A stretch of DNA of 64,000 nucleotides from Acidobacteriota bacterium (GTDB taxonomy: Bacteria > Acidobacteriota > UBA890 > WLXD01): positions 373,827-437,826 of the forward strand of contig CAXWPH010000006.1 of NCBI GenBank assembly GCA_963666055.2, read 5' to 3'. Shown here in pieces: positions 16,538 to 59,469 of this stretch; the first letter of the stretch is position 1, and each line of letters begins with the position of its first letter. The notes under the pieces are model-generated. The model did no database searches and was not told where the DNA came from. It worked only from the letters and a program-made list of their open reading frames with translations. The position numbers and the translations under genes are program-made.

Positions 16538-17647
16538 CTAGTTGCTGCGCAACAACTTGTAGCAAAGAAGCTTGGAGAGGTTGAGGAGCAGCTTGCTCGC
16601 CGCCACCGGATCTTCAGCCATGAGCTCGCGCAGGGCACTCTCGCTCAGCGATAGCACACGGGTGTCGTCCTGGGCCGCGTAGACATCAGCCGACCGCGGG
16701 CTCTCGAGAAGGAACGCCATCTCGCCGACCACGTCCCCCGAGGTGCAGACCGCCACCACCTTCCCGTCCACCCGAACCTCCAGCAAACCGGTGAGCACAA
16801 CGAACAGGTTGTGCGCCACGTTGCCTTCCTTGATCAGATGGTCGCCCTGGCGACACTCGATGGTGTTGCTCTTGGACAGGCAACGCTCCTGTTCCGTGTC
16901 GTCGAGGCCATCGAAGAGATGGATCGGGTTCTGGGACAGCTCGAGAGCGTGGTCGATGTCTGACCAGTAGCGCTGCTTGTTGGTGAGAGCAGAGCTGGTC
17001 ACAGCACCCTGGTCAGCCAGCAGATCGACAAGGCAAGCGGGCACGCGCGAGTCGGTGCCGAAATCAGGCAGGATCGACACCAGGGACGATCCGATGGCTC
17101 GCATGTACTCCAGATCCTCGGGCACCAACACCAGCGGAATCAGGTATCCGGTCTCCGGGCTGTTGACGTTGGCACTCGAGTACGTGCGGAATCCCATTCC
17201 CATGTAGAGATTGAGCAGGTGCGGCTCGCAGTCGCCGAACGTCAGCTGAATCCGCTTCTCCCTGACGAGATCGAGGTAGCGCTTGAACATGCGGAATACG
17301 AGGTCGGTGCCACGCTGCTCTGGTGTCACCATGAAGCGCTCACCGACGAGCATCTGCTGGCGTGGGATCTTCTCCAGAAACGGCGCCAGGTCATACTGCT
17401 CGACGTGGCGGTCGCTGAACTCGGCGTCCCCGCCCCAGGTCAAACGCATCGTTCCGACGGTATGGCCTTCCTGATCACGGGCGTAGTAGAGGCGGCCCGC
17501 CGCATCATCGGGTTCAATCAGCAAGCGCTTGTCGTGGTCGGCGATCGAGCCGTATCGATTCATCTCTTCGACGTAGATCTCGTAGCGAAGTCGATAGACG
17601 GCTTCACGCTCGTCGTCTGTCTCAGCGCGGTGTATCTCAGGCTTCAT
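16538..17647 (-). CDS. GNAT/FeeM-like N-acyltransferase fused to C-terminal cyclic-nucleotide-binding domain
   Basis: EREAVYRLRYEIYVEE...GTMRL...RFMVTPEQRG (FeeM/LuxI-like fold); LIKEG...LFVVLTG...GEMAFL...RSADV (cNMP phosphate-binding cassette). Confidence 0.8.
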   Translation of the reverse strand: MKPEIHRAETDDEREAVYRLRYEIYVEEMNRYGSIADHDKRLLIEPDDAAGRLYYARDQEGHTVGTMRLTWGGDAEFSDRHVEQYDLAPFLEKIPRQQMLVGERFMVTPEQRGTDLVFRMFKRYLDLVREKRIQLTFGDCEPHLLNLYMGMGFRTYSSANVNSPETGYLIPLVLVPEDLEYMRAIGSSLVSILPDFGTDSRVPACLVDLLADQGAVTSSALTNKQRYWSDIDHALELSQNPIHLFDGLDDTEQERCLSKSNTIECRQGDHLIKEGNVAHNLFVVLTGLLEVRVDGKVVAVCTSGDVVGEMAFLLESPRSADVYAAQDDTRVLSLSESALRELMAEDPVAASKLLLNLSKLLCYKLLRSN

Positions 17648-18514: not shown

Positions 18515-18871
18515 CTATTTGCTGACGTGCTCGACGCTGCTGACCTTCATGACCTTGAGGCCGTCGCGCTCCATCATCGTGCCGGTGATGTTGACCTGAT
18601 GCGCCGCGTGGTTGCTCAGCGACTTGAAGGCGTCCATCTCATCGCTGTCGGGCATCAGCACGAGCACCTGGCCGTCATCCGTCAACAAGGAGGCCGGGAC
18701 CCCCATTTCCAGGCACATCTCGGTGCAACCGACCTCTTCCGGGCCGTGGGCATCGGCAGCGTAGCAGGCGGTGTCGATCACCCTGCCGGAGATAGTCTCC
18801 TGCATCGGCGCGGCGACCGCCACGGGGGCGACGATCATGACTAGCGCTAGGGCTGAAGCTACTCGCTTCAT
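18515..18871 (-). CDS. Small secreted hypothetical protein (Cys/His/Met-rich, OB-fold-like)
   Basis: Signal peptide MKRVASALAL; ISGRVIDTACY...CTEMCLEMGVP...VNITG. Confidence 0.75.
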   Translation of the reverse strand: MKRVASALALVMIVAPVAVAAPMQETISGRVIDTACYAADAHGPEEVGCTEMCLEMGVPASLLTDDGQVLVLMPDSDEMDAFKSLSNHAAHQVNITGTMMERDGLKVMKVSSVEHVSK

Positions 18872-19011
18872 AGGGAAATACTCCTCAGTCGAAGGAATCG
18901 TTGTGGATTGGAGCCATTCCCAGGCTAGCAACCCTGCGGCTGGAGCGTGTCACGCTGCACGACCACCGCGTGACGTAGCGTACAGGAGCCGGCGAGTCTT
19001 GCCACCGATGC

Positions 19012-20943
19012 TCAATGAGCATCGGGGACCGATGTAGGCTCCGCCGCAGCGCCCAAGGCGACCCAGTTGACGTAGCCGATCATCATCTCCTCGAACGTCT
19101 GCTCGCCCCAGACTACCTCTGCCGTCGGGTCGGGGTTGGCCGGATTGCCGGCGCTGTTGTCGTACCAGGCGGTGGCCCGAAGAATTGTGCCCGCAGCAAT
19201 GGGGCGCGGTGACCGAAGAACGTAGTTGAGCTGCCAGTTGAAGTCGTACCGAGGAATCGACAGCAGCTCCTCGACGTCACCGCCGGGCGAGACAAGCTCA
19301 TAGCGGAAGGCGATACCGCGTACATGCGTGTGCGGCAGCAGCGAAAGCAGCATCGCCGGTTCGTCGAAGGTGTAGTCAGCGACCACCTGGTGGCGCCCCG
19401 CTCCGGGCGGAATCGCAAAGCGCATATTGAGCGCCGAGTCAGTACGCACCTCGGTGTGGCCGTGCTCCTCGGCGAAGTACAAGCCTATCCTGGTGCGGTC
19501 GACCACCTCGCGGCCATTCGGCGTGTAATGCAGCTGCACCTTGAGCCACGCGCCAGCCGGCAACAGCTTGCCGAACCCCTGGGGAAACCGCACACCGTCC
19601 TGTCCGGGGACGTTGCTGGCGAAGTAGCCGCGCGCTCCACCCTGCTGCACGTTCTGTGCGTCGGGGTCGCCTTCAAGGGCGCGCTCACGCACCTCTGGAT
19701 CCTCGACGAAGAGCAGCACATGGTGCACCACCTCGGGAGCACCGGGAAGGATCTCCACGGCCTGCACCCAGCGATCCTCGGCGAAATTCGTCTTGATGTA
19801 CTGGTACTGGTAGTCGATGACGCCTTCCGCCGGCACCGTGAACCCCTCGGGGACCGGCAGATCCGCGTCGGGCTCACCGAGGGTCCAGCCCTCGGTCCAG
19901 CGGATGGGAATCGGTGCGTCGGCAGCATCGCCCTCCGGCGTGCCATCGGCGAGCCACTGCTTGAACGTCGTCATCTCCTCGGCACTGAGCGATGGGTCGT
20001 TGGCCCACTCCTCATGCCCCTCGGCGAACCAGGGCGGCATGAGGCCGTCCGCAAGCACCCATTCGATCATGCCCTTCCGACGTACGACGTCGCGGTACTC
20101 GACCAACGGAAAGGGACCAGCCGCGCCGGCGCGATGACAGCGCTGGCAACGCGCCTGCACGATACGGCTTACCCGGTTGTGCCAGGTGGGTGGCGGGGTC
20201 GAAGTCGCCGCCAGCGCCGCCTCATCGAACGACAGGTAGCATCCGGGCGCCAGCGTCGCGCGCACCGCCGGCAGCCTCGCCGCGGCCGTCGCTTCGAGCG
20301 CACCCCGCAGAAACTCCTGGTCGGCGGCAGGCTTCGTGTAACCGAGGCCATATTGATCGTCCACGGCTCCGCGGTACATCAGCGTGCGAGCCGCGTCGAG
20401 TACGAAGACCTCTGTCGAGGTAACCGCGCCCAGCGCGGCTGCGATGCGGCCCTTTGGATCGACGACATACTCGCCGACGAAGCCATACCACTCGATCTCT
20501 TGGTGACCCTCCTCGGGGGTGCCGTATGGCATCGGGTCGACGAAGAGAAATTCGAAGCCCGACTTGTCGAACTCCCGCTCCATGGTGGCAAGGCGGGGCC
20601 CGTACTTCTTCGAGAGCGGGCATCCCGGATCACGCATTGCGATGACCAGGCCTCGCGATCCGGTCAGCGCAGAGATCCGCGTCGTTCGGCCCGTCAGAGT
20701 CTTCAGCTCGAGGTCGGGAATCAGCTCGCCAACGCGGGCGGCTTCATTGCCCAAGACGACGGGCGCGCCACGATACTGCAACGCGTGCCCCGAATCTTCC
20801 TGCGAGGCTTGGTGCTGCCGGGCAGCCTGCGGCGCAGGCGGCGAGACGGTCGCATCCACCCACGCTGCGGGAGCGAGAAACACCCCGCCGACCAGGAGCC
20901 CACAGGTCGCAGCAAACATCCAGTACCGGCTTGTCGGTTTCAT
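19012..20943 (-). CDS. Secreted redoxin + c-type heme + copper type II (PHM/DBH-like) monooxygenase domain protein
   Basis: Redoxin part (GCPLS, YRGAVDDQY); CQRCH + MPPW; Cu-ligand motifs VVHH, QLHY, PHTH, EEM; YDFNWQ. Confidence 0.82.
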   Translation of the reverse strand: MKPTSRYWMFAATCGLLVGGVFLAPAAWVDATVSPPAPQAARQHQASQEDSGHALQYRGAPVVLGNEAARVGELIPDLELKTLTGRTTRISALTGSRGLVIAMRDPGCPLSKKYGPRLATMEREFDKSGFEFLFVDPMPYGTPEEGHQEIEWYGFVGEYVVDPKGRIAAALGAVTSTEVFVLDAARTLMYRGAVDDQYGLGYTKPAADQEFLRGALEATAAARLPAVRATLAPGCYLSFDEAALAATSTPPPTWHNRVSRIVQARCQRCHRAGAAGPFPLVEYRDVVRRKGMIEWVLADGLMPPWFAEGHEEWANDPSLSAEEMTTFKQWLADGTPEGDAADAPIPIRWTEGWTLGEPDADLPVPEGFTVPAEGVIDYQYQYIKTNFAEDRWVQAVEILPGAPEVVHHVLLFVEDPEVRERALEGDPDAQNVQQGGARGYFASNVPGQDGVRFPQGFGKLLPAGAWLKVQLHYTPNGREVVDRTRIGLYFAEEHGHTEVRTDSALNMRFAIPPGAGRHQVVADYTFDEPAMLLSLLPHTHVRGIAFRYELVSPGGDVEELLSIPRYDFNWQLNYVLRSPRPIAAGTILRATAWYDNSAGNPANPDPTAEVVWGEQTFEEMMIGYVNWVALGAAAEPTSVPDAH

Positions 20944-21133
20944 TCGTTTCTGTCCAGTCGAGCGGCCGAACCTACGCGGCGCGGAGAGCATCGACGAATA
21001 GTACGTTGCTGGACATCCCGGGGCCACATGCGCCTTCCGCGACGCTGCCGCAGCGCGTCATTGGGCTATCGGACGAGAGACAGCGCCGGCGATTCAACTG
21101 CGCCAGGTAACCAGGCTCGCCCACGTCCTGCTA

Positions 21134-49526: not shown

Positions 49527-50954
49527 TCACTCGGGCTCGATCGCCTCGGCTGCCGCCCTCCGCCGGTCGACGATCTCGTCGTACTCCTCCTGCTGCAAGT
49601 ACGTCACATCGACCCAGGCGTGCGCCATTTCGTCGACCGTACGGTCGCCCCACCCGACCCATTGCTCGGGATCCGGGTTGGTCGGGTTGTCAGCCGTGTT
49701 GTCGTGCCACGCCGTAATGACGATGGTGGTGCCGGCAGGCAACAGCGGAGCGACCTCGTCGGCGTAGATGTAGTTGATGTGCCAGTTCCAATTGAAGTTG
49801 TCGACCAAGCTGAGGATCTCTTCGCGGCCATCTGGGTAAATCGCCGACATCTGCATTGCCTTGCCGCGCATGTGCATGTGCGGCTGGAAGTTCTCCAGAC
49901 GCGCCGGCCACTGCATAACGTGGTGCTGCTGAGTGACCGCGATCTTGCCCGGGGGGATGTCGATGCCGGTGCGGCCTCGCGCATCGAGAAAATTGAGCCT
50001 GGTGCGGTTCCTGGGCTCGTTGCCCTTGTCGTGGAACCAGACGCCGAGCTCGACCTGTACGTCCTCGACCAGCTTGCCGATGGCGTGCATGTGCAGCTCC
50101 CAGCGGATCTGGGAGTCCGGCAGCATCATCTTGCCGGCCCCTTCGGGGAAGATCTCGCCGGCCTTTCCGACCGCCCACTCCATGAACAGGCCCGGCCCAC
50201 CCATGGCACCCCGGGTGCTGGTGACCACGGCTCCGGCGCTCATCTCGCCCTCCTCCTCCTCTTGCTCGAGGAAGGCGAGCACGTGGTGAATGATCGTGCG
50301 CGCGTCCTTGCCGACCGGGCGGATCTCGATCGCCTTGACCCAGCGCGCTTCGGTCAGGCCGGTGGGAGTCAGGGGGCGAAACCACTTGTCCTGGGTCACG
50401 GCCTCGAGCGTGTACGACTCCGACGGAATGATGAGATCGGGCTCGCCGAAGTCATCCACCAGCCGCCAGGCACCCGGATCAGGAAACTCGGCCGGCGGAG
50501 GCATGTCGGCCGCGGCGCCGAACGGGGCGCCGGCGTCGACCCAGGCACCGATCGTCTCGATCTCATCGGCGGTGAGACCGCGATCGTTCTTGAACTTCTT
50601 GATACCGACGGAACGGTTGATATGCCAGGGCGGCATCTGCCGTCTTTCGACCCTGTCCTTGATCATTGCCGCGTAGGTTCGCACCTCGTCGTAGGTCATC
50701 AGCGACATCGGCGCGATGGAATCCGGCTGATGGCACACCCGGCACTTCCGCTGCAGGATCGGCGCCACGTGCTTGGCGAAGGTGATCGCGTCCGGGCCCT
50801 CTTCCACCATCACCGCGGCGTCGGCAACCATCTGAGCGCTCGACCGCTCTTGGGATACCGCCTGCCCTTGAGGGATCAGCAACCCGGCGAACGCCAGCAC
50901 CCCCATCACACCGATAGCGATTCCGCGACGACCGAACATGGTTGTCTTCATCAC
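49527..50954 (-). CDS. Secreted c-type heme + copper type II (PHM/DBH-like) monooxygenase domain protein
   Basis: Signal peptide; CRVCH + MPPW; IIHH, ELHMH, PHMH, DEM; FNWNW. Confidence 0.82.
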   Translation of the reverse strand: MMKTTMFGRRGIAIGVMGVLAFAGLLIPQGQAVSQERSSAQMVADAAVMVEEGPDAITFAKHVAPILQRKCRVCHQPDSIAPMSLMTYDEVRTYAAMIKDRVERRQMPPWHINRSVGIKKFKNDRGLTADEIETIGAWVDAGAPFGAAADMPPPAEFPDPGAWRLVDDFGEPDLIIPSESYTLEAVTQDKWFRPLTPTGLTEARWVKAIEIRPVGKDARTIIHHVLAFLEQEEEEGEMSAGAVVTSTRGAMGGPGLFMEWAVGKAGEIFPEGAGKMMLPDSQIRWELHMHAIGKLVEDVQVELGVWFHDKGNEPRNRTRLNFLDARGRTGIDIPPGKIAVTQQHHVMQWPARLENFQPHMHMRGKAMQMSAIYPDGREEILSLVDNFNWNWHINYIYADEVAPLLPAGTTIVITAWHDNTADNPTNPDPEQWVGWGDRTVDEMAHAWVDVTYLQQEEYDEIVDRRRAAAEAIEPE

Positions 50955-50969
50955 GATCTTCTCCTGAGT

Positions 50970-51842
50970 CTACGGATCTACCGTTACTTTCACGAAACCA
51001 TTGGTCCAGCAACATTGCGCATGCCCGGCGGACGCGAAGGCGGAAGATCCGGGTCTGTATCCAGATGCGTCGTTAGCTCGGACCCGGAGCAAGTACTCTC
51101 CCGGAGCGCTGAAGGTCGCCACCGTAGCCATCTCGGCGCCGCCCACTGGAAGCTCGGCGGTCGGCGGGTCGAAAACCACGTTCCCTGGGCCCTGGTGCTT
51201 GAACCAGGTGAGAGTTATCGGAACGTCAACCACCCCTGCGCTGGCGATTCTCGGGGCCGGCCGGCCATCGTCGCGGGCCCATACCGTGAGCGTCAACGGC
51301 TCGCGAACCGACCCCACCATCGGAGCGCTCGTGACGCCAGCCGGGCCGGCTCCCTCGGCGCGGCCAAACTTGAGCACCGGCGGCGTGTTGCCCGAGCCCG
51401 CCTCGCCGGCCAGCGCGTCAATCTGCCAGTCAGCTCTGAGATGGCCTGGGATGGTGAATGTCTCGCCGCGGATCTTCAGCGTCCAGTAGACCTTCGTGTT
51501 GCCGTGGTCCGCCGGCACCTTGACCGCGAACACGCCCCAGTTTTGGCGCGGCTGAAAGTGCGACGGCTGGCCGCCATCGAACCGGGCCGGCTCGATGAAG
51601 TTGTTCGGGCCGAGGGGGATCTCGAGCTCTTCTTCGGTATTGCGGTTGTAGTAGCCGAAGGAAAGGCTGAACGTGCCGTCCGGGTTCTCGTACCACCCTT
51701 CGAAGGCCGGCGTGACCGTCATCCCGGCGGCGCTTTCAGGAGCGAACGGCAGCTGCGGTGATGGCGTCGCCGACAACGCCGCGGCGCCCCCGGTGACCAA
51801 GCCGGCAGCCACGACGATGGCGACCGATGTCGGTCTGCGCAC
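50970..51842 (-). CDS. Secreted hypothetical protein with Ig/PKD-like C-terminal domain
   Basis: AGGAGG RBS + GTG; signal peptide; PAFEGWYENPDG...FGYYNRN; ATFSAPGEYLLRVRAND; terminal QCCWTN. Confidence 0.75.
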   Translation of the reverse strand: MRRPTSVAIVVAAGLVTGGAAALSATPSPQLPFAPESAAGMTVTPAFEGWYENPDGTFSLSFGYYNRNTEEELEIPLGPNNFIEPARFDGGQPSHFQPRQNWGVFAVKVPADHGNTKVYWTLKIRGETFTIPGHLRADWQIDALAGEAGSGNTPPVLKFGRAEGAGPAGVTSAPMVGSVREPLTLTVWARDDGRPAPRIASAGVVDVPITLTWFKHQGPGNVVFDPPTAELPVGGAEMATVATFSAPGEYLLRVRANDASGYRPGSSAFASAGHAQCCWTNGFVKVTVDP

Positions 51843-51987
51843 AGATGTCCTCCTGAAGAACTGTATTGAGCGCTGGAACCCCTCCGGTGCCCGAAGCTCC
51901 CGCCACACGTTCCTTTCGGAGGGTCATCGGTGCCGCTCTAGAAGTCAATCGAATCGGGCGCCCAACCGTCGAAGATCTCGTGAGCCA

Positions 51988-53937
51988 CTATTCAAGCGCC
52001 AACGCCACCAGCTCGCCCGGGTGCCCGGTCGCCCCGACAGCGACCACCACGTACTGCTTGCCATCGTGCATGTAGGTGATCGGCACCCCGCTCTGATTGG
52101 CCGGCAGCTCGATCTCGGCGAGCACCTCACCGGAGAGCTTGTCGTGGGCGCGGAGCTTGTTTCCACCGCCTCCATAGGCAGCGAACAGACCGGAGCCCTC
52201 ACCAACGAACAGCAGCGTCTTGGTCACCAGCGGGGCACCGCGGTCGGTGCGGCCGGTCGGCGGGATGTCGAGCCCACGGAGCGCCGGGTGCTCACGAACA
52301 TAGTCGGGAGTGTCGCCGTTCGGTCGCGTCCATACGTGCTCGCCGGTATTCAGATCGATGGCAGTGATGCGCCCCCAGGGTGGCTTGATCAGCGGCAACC
52401 CGCGTGGCCCGCCGCCCTGCGGCAGCCTGACGCTCCGACCCTGCACGTACCTCATGTTGGAGCTCGCGGGATCGCTCCACAGCCCGTACACATCCGGTTT
52501 GGTGGTCGAGGTCACGTACAAGATGCCGGTTTCTGGATCTGCTGCGGCACTGGGCCAGTTGGCCCCGCCCACACTTCCCGGCATCGCCAGGGTCCCCTTG
52601 GTCCCGTTCTCCTCGATGAGCGACGGCGGCGTGAACAGGGGCCCGAGGCGGAAGGTGGAGGCCAGCTCCTTGGCCTCCTCGAAGAGCTCGGGCGTGAAGT
52701 CGATGAGGTCATCGATGGTGACACCCTGACGATCGAACGGCGCCGGCTTGGTCGGAAACGGCTGCGTTGCCGCGGTGCGCTCACCGGGGACATCGGTCTG
52801 CGGGACGGGGCGGTCCTCGATCGGCCATACGGGCTGGCCGGTGACGCGGTCGAAGACGAAGGTGAACGCCTGCTTGGTGACCTGGGCGACCGCCTTGATC
52901 GAGCGACCGTCGACGTTGATGTCGAGCAGGATCGGGGCGGCCGGCAGATCGTAGTCCCAGATGCCGTGGCGAACCGTCTGGAAGTGCCAGACGCGCTCGC
53001 CGGTCCTGGCGTCCAGGCACACCAGGCTCTGGGAGAAGAGGTTGTCGCCGGGGCGGTGGCCGCCGTAGTAGTCGCCGGTCGGGGCCTCGAGCGGCACATA
53101 CACGTAGCCGAGCTCGGGATCGGCGGAAAACGTCGTCCACTGGCCGACGTTGCCTGTGTAGCTGGCGGAGCCCTCCTCCCAGGTGTCATGGCCGAGCTCG
53201 CCGGGCTCGGGAATGGTGTGGAAGATCCACAGGCGATCGCCCGTTCGCGCGTCGTAGCCGCGAATGTGGCCAGCTGGCATCTCCTTGGTCGGCGGACTGC
53301 CGCCGGCCGGAAAGGCGCTGCCGACCACGACAACATCGCCCACGACGACGGCCGGCGAGCTCGAGCCTATGGTTGCCGTCTCGACATCGAGCTCGCGGTC
53401 CAGCTCGCGCCGCAGATCCACAGTTCCGTCGATGCCGAAGTCCGGCATGGGCCGCCCGGTCTTCGGGCTCAGCGCCACCAAGTGGTAGGCAGGCGTAACC
53501 AGGAAGATCGCCTCCTCGTCGCCGTCCGACCAGTACGCTACCCCACGGCCCGAGTTGGGACGCGGCGCGGTGTCGCCGCGCGCCCCTTCGTCCATACGGT
53601 ACGACCACAGCGTCTCGCCGGTAGCCGCGTCGATCGCCACCACGGCGCGACGCGTTCCCGCCGTCGCATACAGCACGCCGTTCACCATCAGCGGCGTGGT
53701 GCGGTAATTAAACTCCGGCCGCGGACCGTAATTGTCGGACTTCCAACGCCAGGCGATCTGCAGCTCAGCGACGTTGTCTCGATCGATCTGGTCGAGCGGC
53801 GCGTAGCGGGTGCTGGCCGCGTCGCCGCCGTAGTAGTGCCACTCGCCGTCGCCGGCGCCGTTCTGCATTCTGCCGGTCGACGCGGCGGCCGAGCCCAGCA
53901 GCAACGCCATTCCCACGAAGGCCGCGCCTGCTCTCAT
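51988..53937 (-). CDS. Secreted PQQ-dependent dehydrogenase (glucose/quinate/shikimate dehydrogenase-like, no membrane domain)
   Basis: RYAPLDQIDRDNV..L..AW, TPLMVNGVLY, WHFQTVRHGIWDYD, GGANW, PPWGRITAIDLNTGEHVW. Confidence 0.9.
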   Translation of the reverse strand: MRAGAAFVGMALLLGSAAASTGRMQNGAGDGEWHYYGGDAASTRYAPLDQIDRDNVAELQIAWRWKSDNYGPRPEFNYRTTPLMVNGVLYATAGTRRAVVAIDAATGETLWSYRMDEGARGDTAPRPNSGRGVAYWSDGDEEAIFLVTPAYHLVALSPKTGRPMPDFGIDGTVDLRRELDRELDVETATIGSSSPAVVVGDVVVVGSAFPAGGSPPTKEMPAGHIRGYDARTGDRLWIFHTIPEPGELGHDTWEEGSASYTGNVGQWTTFSADPELGYVYVPLEAPTGDYYGGHRPGDNLFSQSLVCLDARTGERVWHFQTVRHGIWDYDLPAAPILLDINVDGRSIKAVAQVTKQAFTFVFDRVTGQPVWPIEDRPVPQTDVPGERTAATQPFPTKPAPFDRQGVTIDDLIDFTPELFEEAKELASTFRLGPLFTPPSLIEENGTKGTLAMPGSVGGANWPSAAADPETGILYVTSTTKPDVYGLWSDPASSNMRYVQGRSVRLPQGGGPRGLPLIKPPWGRITAIDLNTGEHVWTRPNGDTPDYVREHPALRGLDIPPTGRTDRGAPLVTKTLLFVGEGSGLFAAYGGGGNKLRAHDKLSGEVLAEIELPANQSGVPITYMHDGKQYVVVAVGATGHPGELVALALE

Positions 53938-54383
53938 CGCTGCTCCTGGGCAGCTGTGAGCAGGATCTCGAACAAGGCGTCGGTGTCGGCCTCGAGCTCT
54001 TCGTCGCCGGGCGGGAACCCGTTGCCACGCAGGATCATCGCGATAAGGTCGACCGTTTCCCCCGGCGACAGACGGCCGGGGTCGTCCTCAGGCATGGTCT
54101 CCTGAATGATCGCGTACAGGATCCCCAGCGACTCCTGAGCCCAGAAGTGCATGAAGTCCCTGCCCACCAACCCGATGGAGGTTTCCCCGCCGCGCAACTG
54201 TACTCCGTGGCAGGTGCCGCACTCGCGCACGTAGGTGCGCTGACCGCGATCGGCTTGCTCGGCCGAATAGACACCGTCCTCGGCGGTAGCTTGGAGCGTC
54301 CCTGAGCTCACGCTGCCGGCTACGAGGGTCATCCCAGCAAGCGCCGCCGTGCCGGCCAACGTGCTGAGGACCATCTTTGTCAC
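53934..54383 (-). CDS. Periplasmic monoheme cytochrome c
   Basis: Signal peptide; GVYSAEQADRG...CGTCHG...MP; ATGA overlap with the PQQ gene; GGAG RBS before GTG. Confidence 0.88.
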   Translation of the reverse strand: MTKMVLSTLAGTAALAGMTLVAGSVSSGTLQATAEDGVYSAEQADRGQRTYVRECGTCHGVQLRGGETSIGLVGRDFMHFWAQESLGILYAIIQETMPEDDPGRLSPGETVDLIAMILRGNGFPPGDEELEADTDALFEILLTAAQEQR

Positions 54384-54545
54384 CTGCGTCTCCGATTTCT
54401 GCGGCAGCGAGCCGGCACACTCCGGTAGCAAACCCGGCAACACTACCCTACCGAGCTGCAGGTGAGGTAGTTGTTCCGCCCCGCCATTGGACACCTCGGC
54501 GGCTTCACGGCTATCTTCAGGTATCGGTAGCTCCGAGGAGGCACC

Positions 54546-55844
54546 ATGAGGCGAGCGTTGCTGGTCGGAATCGGTTCGATCGTTGCTATTTGCGGCTGGA
54601 ACGAAGTGCCGGCCGCCAGCGCGGCACAGGCACAGGCGACACCTGCTGCGTTGGAGGAGGACTCGTCCAGGCAGCGCGCACCCACTTGGACCGAAGACAT
54701 CGGACCGCTCATGGCCGTCAAGTGCATGAACTGTCACCGGCCGGGCGAAGTGGCGCCGCTGTCGCTGCTCACCTACGAGGAGGCGCGCCCGTGGGCCGAC
54801 TCGATTCGCTTGATGGTGGAGCTCGGCATCATGCCGCCATGGCACGCCGACCCGCGCTACGGCCACTTCGGCAACGATCGCCGGCTGAGCGACGCGCAAC
54901 GGCAGACGATCCTGGCGTGGGTCGACGAGGGAGCGCCGCGCGGAGAGGGTGATTTCATCCCACCCGAGTTCCCCGAGGGCTGGCTGCTCGGAGGTCTGCT
55001 CGGACCTCCAGACTACGTGTTCGAGATGGACGAGGAGTTCGAGGTGCCGGCCGGCGGCGCCGATATCAACATCGACATCATGGCCCCGACCACCCACCAA
55101 GAGGACATCTGGGTGCAGGCCGTCGAGGTGCGCGGCAACTCACGTGTCGTGCACCACAACGTCGTCACCGTGATGCGTCCCGACGGAACCTACGATCCGT
55201 CCGGGCGGCTTGCCAGCGCCGTTCCCGGCAAGCAATGGGATCGGTTTCCCGAAGGCGCGGGCAAGCTGATCCCCGCCGGTTCCCAGCTGCGCCACGGATT
55301 GCACTACCACCCCAGCAACACCCTCGAGAGGGATCGATCCCGCGTCGCGGTGTGGCTCGTCGACAACCCCATCAGCCACACGATCCACTCGTCGGTCGTG
55401 GCCGACCCGACGCTGCAGATCCCTCCTCACGAGCCGAACTACACGAGCCGTGGCGAGTTCATCTTCGATGTCGACGCCGAGCTCACGCTGATGAAGCCCC
55501 ACATGCACTACCGGGGCAAGGACATGACGTACCGCGCCATCTACCCCGACGGCACCGCGGAGATCCTGCTGCACGTGCCGAACTACGACATGTACTGGCA
55601 GATTTCCTACGAGCTCGCCGAGCCGATCCCGATGCCCAAGGGGACCAAGCTCGAGGTCGTTGCCCACTTCGACAACTCGGCGAGCAATCCCTGGAACCCG
55701 GATCCCACTGTGCAGGTGATCTGGGGCGCCGATTCCCGCGACGAGATGATGGAGGGCTGGTTCGACTACCGGGTGAAGCTGGAGGAGCCCATCGTGCCCG
55801 ACAACGTCGAGAGCGCCTCGGGCTCTGACTCCGGGGCGCGATGA
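54546..55844 (+). CDS. Secreted c-type heme + copper type II (PHM/DBH-like) monooxygenase domain protein
   Basis: Signal peptide; CMNCH + MPPW; VVHH, LHYH, PHMH, DEMM; YDMYWQ. Confidence 0.82.
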   Translation: MRRALLVGIGSIVAICGWNEVPAASAAQAQATPAALEEDSSRQRAPTWTEDIGPLMAVKCMNCHRPGEVAPLSLLTYEEARPWADSIRLMVELGIMPPWHADPRYGHFGNDRRLSDAQRQTILAWVDEGAPRGEGDFIPPEFPEGWLLGGLLGPPDYVFEMDEEFEVPAGGADINIDIMAPTTHQEDIWVQAVEVRGNSRVVHHNVVTVMRPDGTYDPSGRLASAVPGKQWDRFPEGAGKLIPAGSQLRHGLHYHPSNTLERDRSRVAVWLVDNPISHTIHSSVVADPTLQIPPHEPNYTSRGEFIFDVDAELTLMKPHMHYRGKDMTYRAIYPDGTAEILLHVPNYDMYWQISYELAEPIPMPKGTKLEVVAHFDNSASNPWNPDPTVQVIWGADSRDEMMEGWFDYRVKLEEPIVPDNVESASGSDSGAR

Positions 55845-56530
55845 TCTTCGGCCGGCGCTCCGGAGCTAGCGTCGCCTTAGCGGGTCTCGGGGCAGCAGCG
55901 CTGCTAGCAGGCGCCTGCTCGGGTTCGGCCTCCGTCGACCCTACCGGCATGTGGAACCTGAAATCCGGCGACCTGACGAACCGGGCTACGGGTGGCGTCC
56001 GCACGGTGCTGCTGCGGGTCCAGGAGGTCGACGGCGAGCTTGAGGCCGAGATCACATCGATCAGCGGTGCGTTCCTGCCGACGCAAAGCTTCGACTACGA
56101 CGACGGCGTGATGTCGGTCAAGTCCGGCGCCTACGAGTACACGCTCGACATCGACGGCGACGACATCGAGGGAACTGTCGTCAGCCCGCTCGGCAGGCAG
56201 CAGATCGTCGGGTTCCGCCAGTACGACACGCTGCTGTATGTCGGCGACCAGCCCGAGGAGTACCAGTTCACGCGCACCGGCATCATCGGTCACCGCACCG
56301 AGTTGCAGCCCCCGGAAGACGCTTCCGATCCCGCCGACTGGGTAACCAGCCGTATCGAATCGGCGAACGATCTAGCGCTCATCGTCGGCCGCCGCCATAA
56401 GCTCGCCGTCGAGTTCACCAACGCCGAGGAGTTCGAAGCCGAGCTCCGGGCCCACGCCGGACAGCGCGTCGCCATCAGCGGCGTCTGGGTGGGCGAAAGA
56501 ATCCGGATCGAGGCTGTCGATACGCCCTGA
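55841..56530 (+). CDS. Hypothetical lipoprotein
   Basis: Lipobox LAGAC; ATGA overlap with the upstream monooxygenase-like gene. Confidence 0.7.
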   Translation: MIFGRRSGASVALAGLGAAALLAGACSGSASVDPTGMWNLKSGDLTNRATGGVRTVLLRVQEVDGELEAEITSISGAFLPTQSFDYDDGVMSVKSGAYEYTLDIDGDDIEGTVVSPLGRQQIVGFRQYDTLLYVGDQPEEYQFTRTGIIGHRTELQPPEDASDPADWVTSRIESANDLALIVGRRHKLAVEFTNAEEFEAELRAHAGQRVAISGVWVGERIRIEAVDTP

Positions 56531-56778: not shown

Positions 56779-57789
56779 TTGAGAATCACCGAGCGAATCG
56801 CCGCGGCCAAAGCGCCCTTCTTCAGCTTCGAGCTGCTGCCGCCGCTACGCGGCGGCACCATCGCACCGCTGCTTGAGACCGTCGAGGCGCTGCTCCCCTA
56901 CCGTCCCGCCTTCATCGACGTCACCAGCCACGCCGGTGTGGTGACGTATGAGGACGGTCCTGATGGGCTGAAGCGGCACATTGTCCGGCGTCGACCCGGA
57001 ACGCTCGCGGCCAGCTCGCTGATCCAGCACAAGTACGGCATCCCCACCGTCCCGCATGTCGTCTGCAAAGGTTTCACGCGCCAGGAGACCGAGGATTTCC
57101 TCATCGACACGAGCTACGTCGGCATCGATACGGTGCTGGCGATCGCCGGCGACGACCACGGCTACGACAAGCCGCTCACCGACAATCGAACCCGCAACGA
57201 AAACGCCCTCGAGCTGGTGCAGCAGATTCGCGATCTGGGCGAGGGCAAGTACGTATCGGCGCCTCGCGAGGGCTCTCCGATCCGCTTCGAGATCGGAGTG
57301 GCCGGATACCCCGAGAAGCACATTCAGGCCCCCAACCTGGAAGCCGACGTTCGCTGGCTGAAGCGCAAGCTCGACGCCGGCGCGCATTATGTCGTCACCC
57401 AGATGTTCTTCAACAACCAGAGCTACTACGACTACGTGCGGCTGTGTCGTGAGATGGGCATCGAGGCGCCGATCATCCCGGCGCTGAAGGTGCTCACCGC
57501 CAAGCGACAGCTGAGTTTGCTGCCGAAGTTATTCTTCATCCACCTGCCGCCAGAGCTCGTCGATGCGGTCGAAGCGGCCGACGATGACGCAGTCACGGAA
57601 GTCGGAATCGATTGGGCACGACGCCAGATCGAGGATCTGCTGGCGCACGACGTGCCGGCCATCCACCTGTACGTCATGCAGAACCCGCAACCGACGCTGC
57701 ACTTGCTGGAAAAGCTACAGCGCGCTGACCCGCAGCCGATGCGGCGCGCGCCGCACGGGCAGCAATGCGCCAACGGACTCCGGGCTTGA
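56779..57789 (+). CDS. metF: Methylenetetrahydrofolate reductase
   Basis: FSFELLPP, IDVT, VAGYPEKH, VTQMFF, IHLYVM. Confidence 0.9.
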   Translation: MRITERIAAAKAPFFSFELLPPLRGGTIAPLLETVEALLPYRPAFIDVTSHAGVVTYEDGPDGLKRHIVRRRPGTLAASSLIQHKYGIPTVPHVVCKGFTRQETEDFLIDTSYVGIDTVLAIAGDDHGYDKPLTDNRTRNENALELVQQIRDLGEGKYVSAPREGSPIRFEIGVAGYPEKHIQAPNLEADVRWLKRKLDAGAHYVVTQMFFNNQSYYDYVRLCREMGIEAPIIPALKVLTAKRQLSLLPKLFFIHLPPELVDAVEAADDDAVTEVGIDWARRQIEDLLAHDVPAIHLYVMQNPQPTLHLLEKLQRADPQPMRRAPHGQQCANGLRA

Positions 57790-57801
57790 TAGAGTCGGCC
57801 G

Positions 57802-59469
57802 GTGGTTGAGCGCACGCCGAGCAAAGAAACAACCTGGGACATCGTCATCGTCGGCGGTGGCTCGGCCGGATGCGTGTTAGCCAATCGCCTCAGCGCAGAC
57901 CCTTCCACCCGGGTGCTGGTGCTGGAGGCGGGGCCGATGGACCATCGTTGGGATTTTCGCCTCCACATGCCGGCTGCCCTGGCGTGGCCGCTCGCCGGGC
58001 GTACCTACAATTGGTGGTACGAGTCCGATCCGGAGCCCGGTATGGGAGGTCGGCGGATATACCAACCTCGGGGCAAGGTGCTCGGCGGCTCCGGCTCTAT
58101 CAACGGCATGGTCTGGATCCGTGGCAACCCGCTCGACTACGAGAGATGGGGGCACGAACCGGGGCTGGCACATTGGGACTTTGCGCACTGCTTGCCCTAC
58201 TTCCGACGCCTGGAGCACCGGCTGTCCGGCGCCGATGCCTACCACGGCGACTCGGGACCCCTGTTTCTCACCACGCCGAGCTGTGACAACCCGCTCGTCG
58301 AGGCCTTTTTTGCGGCGGCGCAGCAAGCCGGGTACCCGCTGACCGAGGATGTCAACGGCTTCCAGCAAGAGGGTTTTTCGAGCTTCGACCGCACCACCTA
58401 CCGGGGACGTCGATGGAGCGCCGCCCGCGCCTACTACCACCCGATCAAGCGCCGCAAGAACCTCACCCTGAAGTGTCGGGCGCTCACCACGCGCATCCTC
58501 TTCGACGAACGTCGGGCGGTAGGGGTCGAGTACCGGCACGGCGGGCAGCAACATGTCGCCCACGGCAACGAGATCATCTGCTGCGGCGGCGCCATCAACT
58601 CCCCCCAGTTGTTGCAGCTCTCCGGCGTGGGCCCCGCCGACCGCCTGAAGCGACTGGGAATCAAGGTGATCCAGGACCTACCCGGGGTGGGCGAGAATCT
58701 CCAAGATCATCTGGAGGTGTACGTGCAGTACGCCTGCACCCAGCCGGTGAGCCTCTACCCGGCGCTAGCCTGGTGGCGCCAGCCATGGATCGGCGCCAAG
58801 TGGCTCTTCGGCCGCCGCGGCATCGGCGCCAGCAACCAGTTCGAGGCTGGCGGCTTCATCCGCAGCAACGACCAGGTGGGCATTCCCAACGTCCAGTTCC
58901 ACTTCCTTCCCATCGCTATCCGCTACGACGGTTCCGCCCCGAGCTCCGGCCACGGCTACCAGGTGCACGTCGGGCCCACTCTTTCGGACGCACGCGGGTG
59001 GGTGCGGAGCCGCTCCTCCGACCCGGACGAGCACCCCTCTATTCGATTCAACTATGTCTCTACGGAGCAGGATCGGCGCGAGTGGGTAGAGGCCATACGC
59101 TGCACGCGCCGCATCATGACCCAGCCGGCCCTCGAGCCGCTCCGGGGTGGCGAGCTGGTGCCCGGCGACGAGGTCGAGACAGATGAGGAGATCCTCAGCT
59201 TCGTCGCCCGCGAGGGCGAGAGCGCCTACCATCCGTGCTGTACCTGTCGCATGGGTACGGACGACGACGCCGTGATCGACGCCGAGCTCCGGGTGCACGG
59301 CCTGCAGGGCCTTCGCGTGGTGGACGCGTCCGCTATGCCGTCCATCACCAACGGCAACATCTACGCACCGGTGCTGATGATCGCCGAGAAGGCCGCCGAC
59401 ATGATCCGCGGAGATACACCGCTGGAGCCCTCCACGGCCCCCTTTTACACGCACGATCCGGTGGCCTGA
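57802..59469 (+). CDS. betA: Choline dehydrogenase (GMC oxidoreductase)
   Basis: GGGSAG, HMPAAL, RGKVLGGSGSINGM, VGENLQDHLEVYVQY, SNQFEAGGF, AYHPCCTCRMG, ITNGN. Confidence 0.9.
   Translation: MVERTPSKETTWDIVIVGGGSAGCVLANRLSADPSTRVLVLEAGPMDHRWDFRLHMPAALAWPLAGRTYNWWYESDPEPGMGGRRIYQPRGKVLGGSGSINGMVWIRGNPLDYERWGHEPGLAHWDFAHCLPYFRRLEHRLSGADAYHGDSGPLFLTTPSCDNPLVEAFFAAAQQAGYPLTEDVNGFQQEGFSSFDRTTYRGRRWSAARAYYHPIKRRKNLTLKCRALTTRILFDERRAVGVEYRHGGQQHVAHGNEIICCGGAINSPQLLQLSGVGPADRLKRLGIKVIQDLPGVGENLQDHLEVYVQYACTQPVSLYPALAWWRQPWIGAKWLFGRRGIGASNQFEAGGFIRSNDQVGIPNVQFHFLPIAIRYDGSAPSSGHGYQVHVGPTLSDARGWVRSRSSDPDEHPSIRFNYVSTEQDRREWVEAIRCTRRIMTQPALEPLRGGELVPGDEVETDEEILSFVAREGESAYHPCCTCRMGTDDDAVIDAELRVHGLQGLRVVDASAMPSITNGNIYAPVLMIAEKAADMIRGDTPLEPSTAPFYTHDPVA

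Follow-up and report, generated by a model that had tools for sequence, protein, structure and literature searches.

A divergent acidobacterial locus with two predicted heme-fused PHM/DBH-like copper proteins, their partner proteins, and a PQQ-type dehydrogenase

Organization of the locus

The locus described here lies in a 64,000-nucleotide stretch of an Acidobacteriota bacterium genome (GenBank assembly GCA_963666055.2, contig CAXWPH010000006.1, positions 373,827 to 437,826 of the forward strand), which is called the window below. It encodes two proteins, D and E, that combine a c-type cytochrome domain with a predicted copper core resembling peptidylglycine α-hydroxylating monooxygenase (PHM) and dopamine β-hydroxylase (DBH). 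They are accompanied by the partner proteins C and F, a pyrroloquinoline quinone (PQQ)-type dehydrogenase B, and a small cytochrome A. The genes D, C, B, and A are read leftward (-), E and F rightward (+), and all positions follow the window numbering:

49527-50954 (-): D, 475 aa; signal peptide, monoheme cytochrome c, and PHM/DBH-like two-domain copper core of the C-partnered subfamily; profile matches to DBH (E 4e-9) and PHM (E 3e-8)
50970-51842 (-): C, 290 aa; predicted exported partner of D with two Ig-like β-sandwiches and CCW at residues 275-277; without Pfam family
51988-53937 (-): B, 649 aa; soluble PQQ-type β-propeller dehydrogenase, a distant Gcd relative without membrane anchor; PF01011, E 1.5e-192
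53934-54374 (-): A, 146 aa; small monoheme cytochrome c (CGTCH, M of TMP), translationally coupled to B; PF13442, 27.5 bits
54375-54545: divergent intergenic region, 171 bp; sigma-70-like site on the + strand at 54488-54517
54546-55844 (+): E, 432 aa; signal peptide, monoheme cytochrome c, and PHM/DBH-like copper core of the F-partnered subfamily, assigned by profile and AlphaFold model
55841-56530 (+): F, 229 aa; predicted lipoprotein partner of E, from a small family without Pfam match; fused to E-type cores elsewhere

An initial annotation, made from the sequence alone, had described a divergent six-gene locus of exported proteins with a coupled A/B pair. All six open reading frames were verified at its coordinates and in its orientation, and ATGA overlaps couple A to B as well as E to F. 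Signal peptides and the lipobox of F (LAGAC) were assigned by eye and agree with that description. C starts with GTG and is preceded by AGGAGG. The sigma-70-like site was the only one found by a promoter scan of the intergenic region, and it is at chance level. A look-up of RNA holders for this locus returned no entry. The locus is made up of three modules (C+D, E+F, and A+B) rather than one six-gene system.

Predicted fold, copper-ligand positions, and heme of D and E

In sequence alignments, D and E keep the six copper-ligand positions of PHM and DBH, namely HH and H for CuH followed by HxH and M for CuM. In D, the heme motif C71-x-x-C74-H75 and M107 (of MPPW) precede H223 H224, H288, H359-x-H361, and M443; the corresponding residues of E are C60-x-x-C63-H64, M96, H203 H204, H253, H319-x-H321, and M401. 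The motifs exceed chance, each being conserved in 73-74 of the 74 relatives of E and in 56-57 of the 57 of D. In profile alignments, HH, H, and HxH of both proteins line up with those of rat PHM and human DBH. The CuM methionine (of DEM), conserved in 74/74 E and 56/57 D relatives, lies beyond the printed profile alignments, and its position was assigned by motif and fold. Profiles built from 74 E and 54 D sequences both find DBH and PHM as the top PDB matches; they were required, as a single-sequence search of PDB sequences with E returned spurious designed-protein matches only. At the sequence level, the CuH and CuM ligand sets that the initial annotation had assigned to both proteins are thereby upheld. 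In PHM, all six copper ligands have been mutated, each with a loss of ~95% or more of the activity (PMC12164859, accessible part).

The core of E is predicted to adopt the tandem two-domain β-sandwich fold of PHM and DBH. In a Foldseek search, the AlphaFold model of E (confidence score pLDDT 89) has PHM as its top match (E 5e-14, template modeling score 0.58 by target length). Structural alignment to PHM/DBH gives Z scores of 19.6, 18.5, and 16.2, and the next unrelated fold follows at 7.9. The best superposition, on the PHM structure 1sdw (Z 19.6), has a root mean square deviation of 3.5 over 246 residues, a favorable outcome at the level of the fold for the superposition on PHM that had been suggested as a check. 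The structural model covers E only; D, which shares 34-35% identity with E, was placed by profile.

The two cysteines and the histidine of the heme motif as well as the MPP methionine are invariant in both alignments, and residues 44-132 of E align to the monoheme cytochrome PccH with a middling Z score of 7.8. Both results support the earlier proposal of a fused heme c with the methionine of MPPW as distal ligand. From the invariant CxxCH and methionine, this His/Met heme is the likely entry point for electrons.

Partner proteins C and F

C is the tight partner of D and F that of E. The host genome carries 11 heme–copper genes (six D-type, four E-type, and one redoxin fusion), in which every D-type gene adjoins a C-type gene (6/6, one truncated) and every E-type gene an F-type gene (4/4). 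When 10 C genes were scored in each of four near-complete genomes from another family, 39 of the 40 were found within 2.5 kb of a heme–copper gene, compared to 1.3 expected by rotations. Among 80 metagenomic loci found with a C profile, a heme–copper gene is present in 60/60 with at least 400 bases downstream; the other 20 are too short for this count. Natural fusions support the pairing and occur as C-D (P0247, L187), D-C (P0251, P0254), D inserted inside C (P0249), and E-F (P0030, P0033, P0057).

The model of C has two Ig-like β-sandwich domains, in line with the Ig-like character noted initially. Fold searches for a specific structural relative gave generic Ig-like matches only (best Z 10.1), and Atlas matches for C were limited to unnamed or PKD-like clusters. 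For F, the Atlas offers a weak lipocalin lead (score 0.76). In a single case, a C-type protein is continued in one frame by three RidA/YjgF-like (PF01042) domains (genome G003, L120:5827-7968, -), directly after a D-type gene. This fusion gives a weak hint toward amine or imine chemistry.

Neither a C nor an F partner was found in the first 80 genome loci with heme–copper genes. Other heme–copper relatives carry redoxin, TPR, EF-hand, ankyrin, or lipocalin fusions instead. Since not all heme–copper genes come with C or F and other fusions occur, a catalytic heme–copper core with interchangeable accessory parts is suggested.

The initial annotation had joined the six genes into a single dedicated chain with C and F as bystanders. 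In such a chain, B would reduce A, and A would be the obligatory donor to D and E. In its favor, A-B-C-D is intact in 4/4 same-genus genomes. Against it, E-F has been deleted in three of these four with differing scars, while the flanks and A-B-C-D were retained, and C and F turned out to be fixed partners. The chain in this form was not confirmed and is regarded as unlikely.

The dehydrogenase B and the cytochrome A

B shares 30% identity with Escherichia coli Gcd and begins at about Gcd residue 151. It retains the positions R266, W404, D466, and K493 of Gcd. Unlike Gcd, B has no membrane anchor, carries an arginine at E217, and leaves D354/N355 unmatched. B stays below all NCBIfam cut-offs, including those of TIGR03074 (membrane-bound PQQ glucose/quinate/shikimate dehydrogenase; 383 bits, cut-off 833) and TIGR04528 (Acido-empty-quinoprotein group A; 246 bits, cut-off 650). 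The adjacent cysteine pair of TIGR04528 is absent from B. PedH/PedF, ExaA/ExaB, and XoxF/XoxG are soluble quinoprotein–cytochrome pairs, and the monoheme A, coupled to B, resembles their cytochromes as the likely electron acceptor. In a related locus (L112, genome G011), B is tandemly duplicated between A and C, the copies having 85% and 81% identity to B.

Proposed mechanism

It is reasonably probable that D and E act as dicopper hydroxylases fed through their heme, with C and F as working partners. Their electrons would come from periplasmic cytochromes, and A+B would be one local source. D and E would be exported by the Sec system and receive their heme from the Ccm system; the host genome contains a CcmF-like gene (463 bits, below the NrfE cut-off). 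Copper would occupy HH+H (CuH) and HxH+M (CuM). The His/Met heme, reduced by a periplasmic cytochrome, would reduce the coppers in ascorbate's stead. At CuM, O2 would then be activated for the hydroxylation of an activated C-H bond. Amines, amides, or similar small molecules are probable substrates, differing from one paralogue to another, and C and F may serve as substrate-binding or scaffolding subunits. B would oxidize a sugar or alcohol, which may be what the monooxygenase itself produces, and donate the electrons to A. From A, they would reach both D and the respiratory chain. By textbook values, electron transfer from PQQH2 over a His/Met heme to copper is thermodynamically downhill. A+B is a probable but optional electron source for D and E.

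A more specific and tentative version turns A-B-C-D into a self-sustaining loop. Here, C-D would hydroxylate a C-H bond with O2, the alcohol or carbinolamine so formed would be oxidized by B, and A would return the two electrons to the heme of D.

Evidence on the PQQ linkage

A link between PQQ dehydrogenases and heme–copper genes is frequent but optional. Twenty loci that were partly chosen with PQQ positions in view are excluded from all counts, and none of the claims draws on G038 and G152, two unpublished genomes. In the host, 5/11 heme–copper genes have a PQQ gene no more than 5 kb away compared to 0.46 expected, a count that includes the study locus, which was chosen for this link; at the other own-genome loci, a PQQ neighbor is found in 2/8. 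Of the metagenomic C-D loci, 21 are covered for 1.5 kb to either side; six of these have an adjacent PQQ gene and 15 do not. Overall, a PQQ gene occurs in 14/80 metagenomic C-D loci and an A-like cytochrome in 11/80, 10 of them together with a PQQ gene; L237 has the cytochrome near C-D without one. These metagenomic loci have no known background rate, and the related genomes are not independent of each other.

A PQQ-type propeller is found in 13/80 genome loci, and five of these propellers are heme-bearing, directly upstream, and co-directional. Loci L021, L024, L025, L030, and L031 of named Acidobacteriota harbor a distinct family of heme c plus PQQ-like propeller proteins, directly upstream of and co-directional with heme–copper genes. 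PQQ-type genes form the most frequent non-core neighbor cluster (28/160 loci). B-type linked dehydrogenases fall into at least four clades of a tree from a quick search with SH-aLRT (approximate likelihood ratio test) support only. In one of the clades, which comprises 10 metagenomic dehydrogenases, the link persists in both a divergent and a downstream arrangement. Sampling of 74 genomes from the phylum gave five with at least three heme–copper matches, and every one of the five has at least seven PQQ matches.

The recurrent linkage of homologs to PQQ and cytochrome genes across several clades thus answers the neighborhood check of the initial annotation positively; what did not stand is an obligate neighborhood. 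For the single six-gene chain, the host count, the clade with two layouts, and the five sampled genomes are supportive. It is opposed by the 2/8 count once the study locus is removed, by the 15/21 well-flanked loci, and by the sister-family C-D orthologues of G003, G008, and G009, which have no A or B within the 18 kb examined. The proximity test described below also argues against it.

Evidence against the mechanism and rival explanations

Several results weigh against heme-fed hydroxylases supplied by A+B. On the side of D and E, the gathering scores of PF01082/PF03712 are not reached: E has 14.4 bits compared to the Pfam Cu2_monoox_C cut-off of 23, and D has no Cu2_monoox match at all. Some relatives exceed the PF03712 cut-off (e.g., P0308 with 27.7 bits and P0320 with 29.1 bits). 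The hidden Markov model check proposed at the outset therefore held for B as a PQQ protein and for A as a cytochrome c, and failed for the copper domains of D and E. In addition, the substrate-anchoring Arg240 of PHM is absent. It is replaced by glutamine in D (47/47 scored C-linked homologues, 65 examined) and by lysine in E (63/76 scored close homologues), and the residue at this position differs among paralogues. Because of these variable Q/K residues, C-terminal peptide amidation is not indicated, and because of the Pfam thresholds together with Arg240, D and E are not filed as PHM. Ascorbate furthermore seems to do more in PHM than reduce copper (PMC12164859, accessible part), so that the heme may not simply replace it.

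The missing anchor also speaks for electrons flowing in the reverse direction, or for a reaction without O2 insertion. The copper core would then oxidize a substrate as a dehydrogenase, oxidase, or peroxygenase, and electrons from D, E, and B alike would enter cytochrome A and the respiratory chain. A fused c-type heme is commonly where electrons leave, for example in quinohemoproteins, and A-like cytochromes stand near C-D without a PQQ gene in L237 and on contig C12 of the host. At the latter site (C12:461079-465440), an NHL-repeat gene and the A-like cytochrome lie opposite a C-D paralogue, and no PQQ gene is close by. The complete CuH/CuM set with its CuM methionine is kept across the family, however, and PHM requires every one of these ligands for hydroxylation (PMC12164859, accessible part). 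Many relatives also have a fused redoxin domain, which resembles a reductant input. Reverse flow or a reaction without O2 insertion is judged improbable, much like the six-gene chain.

Further points against hydroxylases supplied by A+B concern the linkage. In four high-copy genomes of another family, with 130 heme–copper genes, a PQQ neighbor exists for 13 of these genes at up to 3 kb (null 9.8, p 0.19) and for 21 at up to 5 kb (null 15.6, p 0.12). An excess appears at 8 kb only (39 vs 23.5, p 0.001), and it looks regional and not operonic. For this test, 20 split matches were merged from 150, genome lengths were rounded, and the PQQ lists are incomplete (83 candidates scored per genome, 14 entries omitted). 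An amidohydrolase control showed no proximity to the heme–copper or the PQQ family. Among 12 sampled carriers, five are without a PF01011 match at E<=1e-40, a result that covers all candidates in two of them and 15 candidates only in three.

The host, whose genome is 95.7% complete, contains ~27 PQQ-type genes by the list compiled here. The cofactor genes that would go with the proposed chain were not found in it: pqqB, pqqC, and pqqE are not above cut-off, and there is no PqqU orthologue (best match 25-26% identity, E 2e-6). Host matches to PqqD, TenA, radical SAM, and PqqB-like proteins were rejected as separate, unrelated loci. pqqC is also not above cut-off in 17/19 carrier-group genomes searched, its model matching in 3/45 other genomes. 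Scavenging of PQQ is widespread (PMC12124388, accessible part), and the host may take it up by another route. Four genomes of 3.9-6.5 Mb (G057, G082, G115, and G245) each carry ~28-42 heme–copper genes and at least 40-82 PQQ-type matches, with pqqC above cut-off in G057 and G115.

The combination of many PQQ-type genes with missing synthesis and uptake genes, in the host and in the carrier group, would fit a role of D as a maturase. It would hydroxylate a residue of its partner, e.g., the tryptophan of CCW in C on the way to a cysteine-tryptophylquinone-like cofactor, or make a quinone for the dehydrogenases. CCW is indeed present in 120/120 close C homologues, but it is absent from distant ones and three fusions. 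G057 and G115 combine pqqC with ~30-40 heme–copper genes, which argues against heme–copper enzymes making a substitute cofactor, and the common scavenging of PQQ points the same way. Dozens of paralogues with varied pocket residues are also a better fit to substrate diversification than to one cofactor step. A maturase is therefore considered very unlikely, and heme-fed dicopper hydroxylation with C and F is retained as the preferred explanation.

Comparison with known systems

D and E share with rat PHM (PDB 1PHM/1SDW/3MLL) the two-domain fold, as judged from the E model, the order HH+H then HxH+M, and likely export. They differ by low identity (14-18%), an N-terminally fused heme c, a mature core without cysteines beyond the heme motif, the exchange of Arg240, and a fixed partner C or F. 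A single-sequence search with one own-genome NHL protein also gave no constant PAL-like neighbor (matches in 0/80 and 1/80 loci), and an NHL-repeat gene flanks the C12 paralogue. Human DBH (PDB 4ZEL) is the best profile match of D, and both have an accessory domain N-terminal to the core and a glutamine two residues before HxH. The accessory domain is a c-type cytochrome in D and E and a DOMON domain in DBH. In contrast to DBH, the heme–copper family is bacterial and reaches up to ~40 copies per genome.

The initial annotation compared the locus to dehydrogenase–lytic polysaccharide monooxygenase (LPMO) pairs. The PQQ dehydrogenase CcPDH (AA12, with an AA8 cytochrome) drives fungal LPMOs in vitro, and the c-type cytochrome CjX183 reduces bacterial LPMOs in vitro (PMC5960967 and PMC8981238, accessible parts). 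The wiring from PQQ enzyme over cytochrome to copper monooxygenase, proposed here from the genes, has its precedent in these systems. LPMOs are mono-copper enzymes with a histidine brace, and the heme is located on the donor there and on the oxygenase here. B belongs to the PF01011 propeller family and not to AA12, the family of CcPDH.

Occurrence and significance of the family

The heme–copper family is estimated to occur in ~6200 genome stretches, with 7572 representatives at E<=1e-10, and one 3.9 Mb genome contains up to ~40 members. They are labeled in databases as hypothetical protein, cytochrome c, peroxiredoxin, or thiol-disulfide isomerase. Named close E relatives are mostly from Gemmatimonadota (Longimicrobiales), and more distant loci mostly from Acidobacteriota and Planctomycetota. 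L259 (G212 C27) has five heme–copper genes in tandem, and arrays are also present in L008, L010, and L014.

A third paralogue in the window (19012-21027, -) has an N-terminal AhpC/TSA redoxin domain, and its nearest PQQ gene is 33 kb away. It is followed by a 138-aa cysteine-bearing reading frame (~18515-18931) without Pfam match. Two genes from the redoxin paralogue, a fusion of a FeeM/GNAT-like N-acyl amino acid synthase with a cyclic-nucleotide-binding domain is encoded (16538-17647, -). On the other flank of the locus, MTHFR and a GMC oxidoreductase (choline dehydrogenase-like on reading) at 56779-59469 (+) are syntenic in the genus.

No study of bacterial heme-fused PHM-like proteins was found in a literature search of main texts, with most subscription papers outside its scope; PMC12665527, in its accessible part, covers animal DBH-like genes only. 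The electron route to the coppers of PHM and DBH and the real role of ascorbate are still debated (PMC12164859, accessible part). With a heme that is built in and can be followed spectroscopically, a bacterial homologue would permit timed single-electron delivery, and its expression is easier. The locus is a compact test set for this, with donor, shuttle, oxygenase, and partner in one operon and natural deletions of the E-F arm. If true, the loop formed by A-B-C-D would amount to a PHM-type enzyme that runs on a protein electron donor without ascorbate. The dozens of paralogues present in some genomes would then represent an unrecognized oxidative toolkit for dissolved organic matter.

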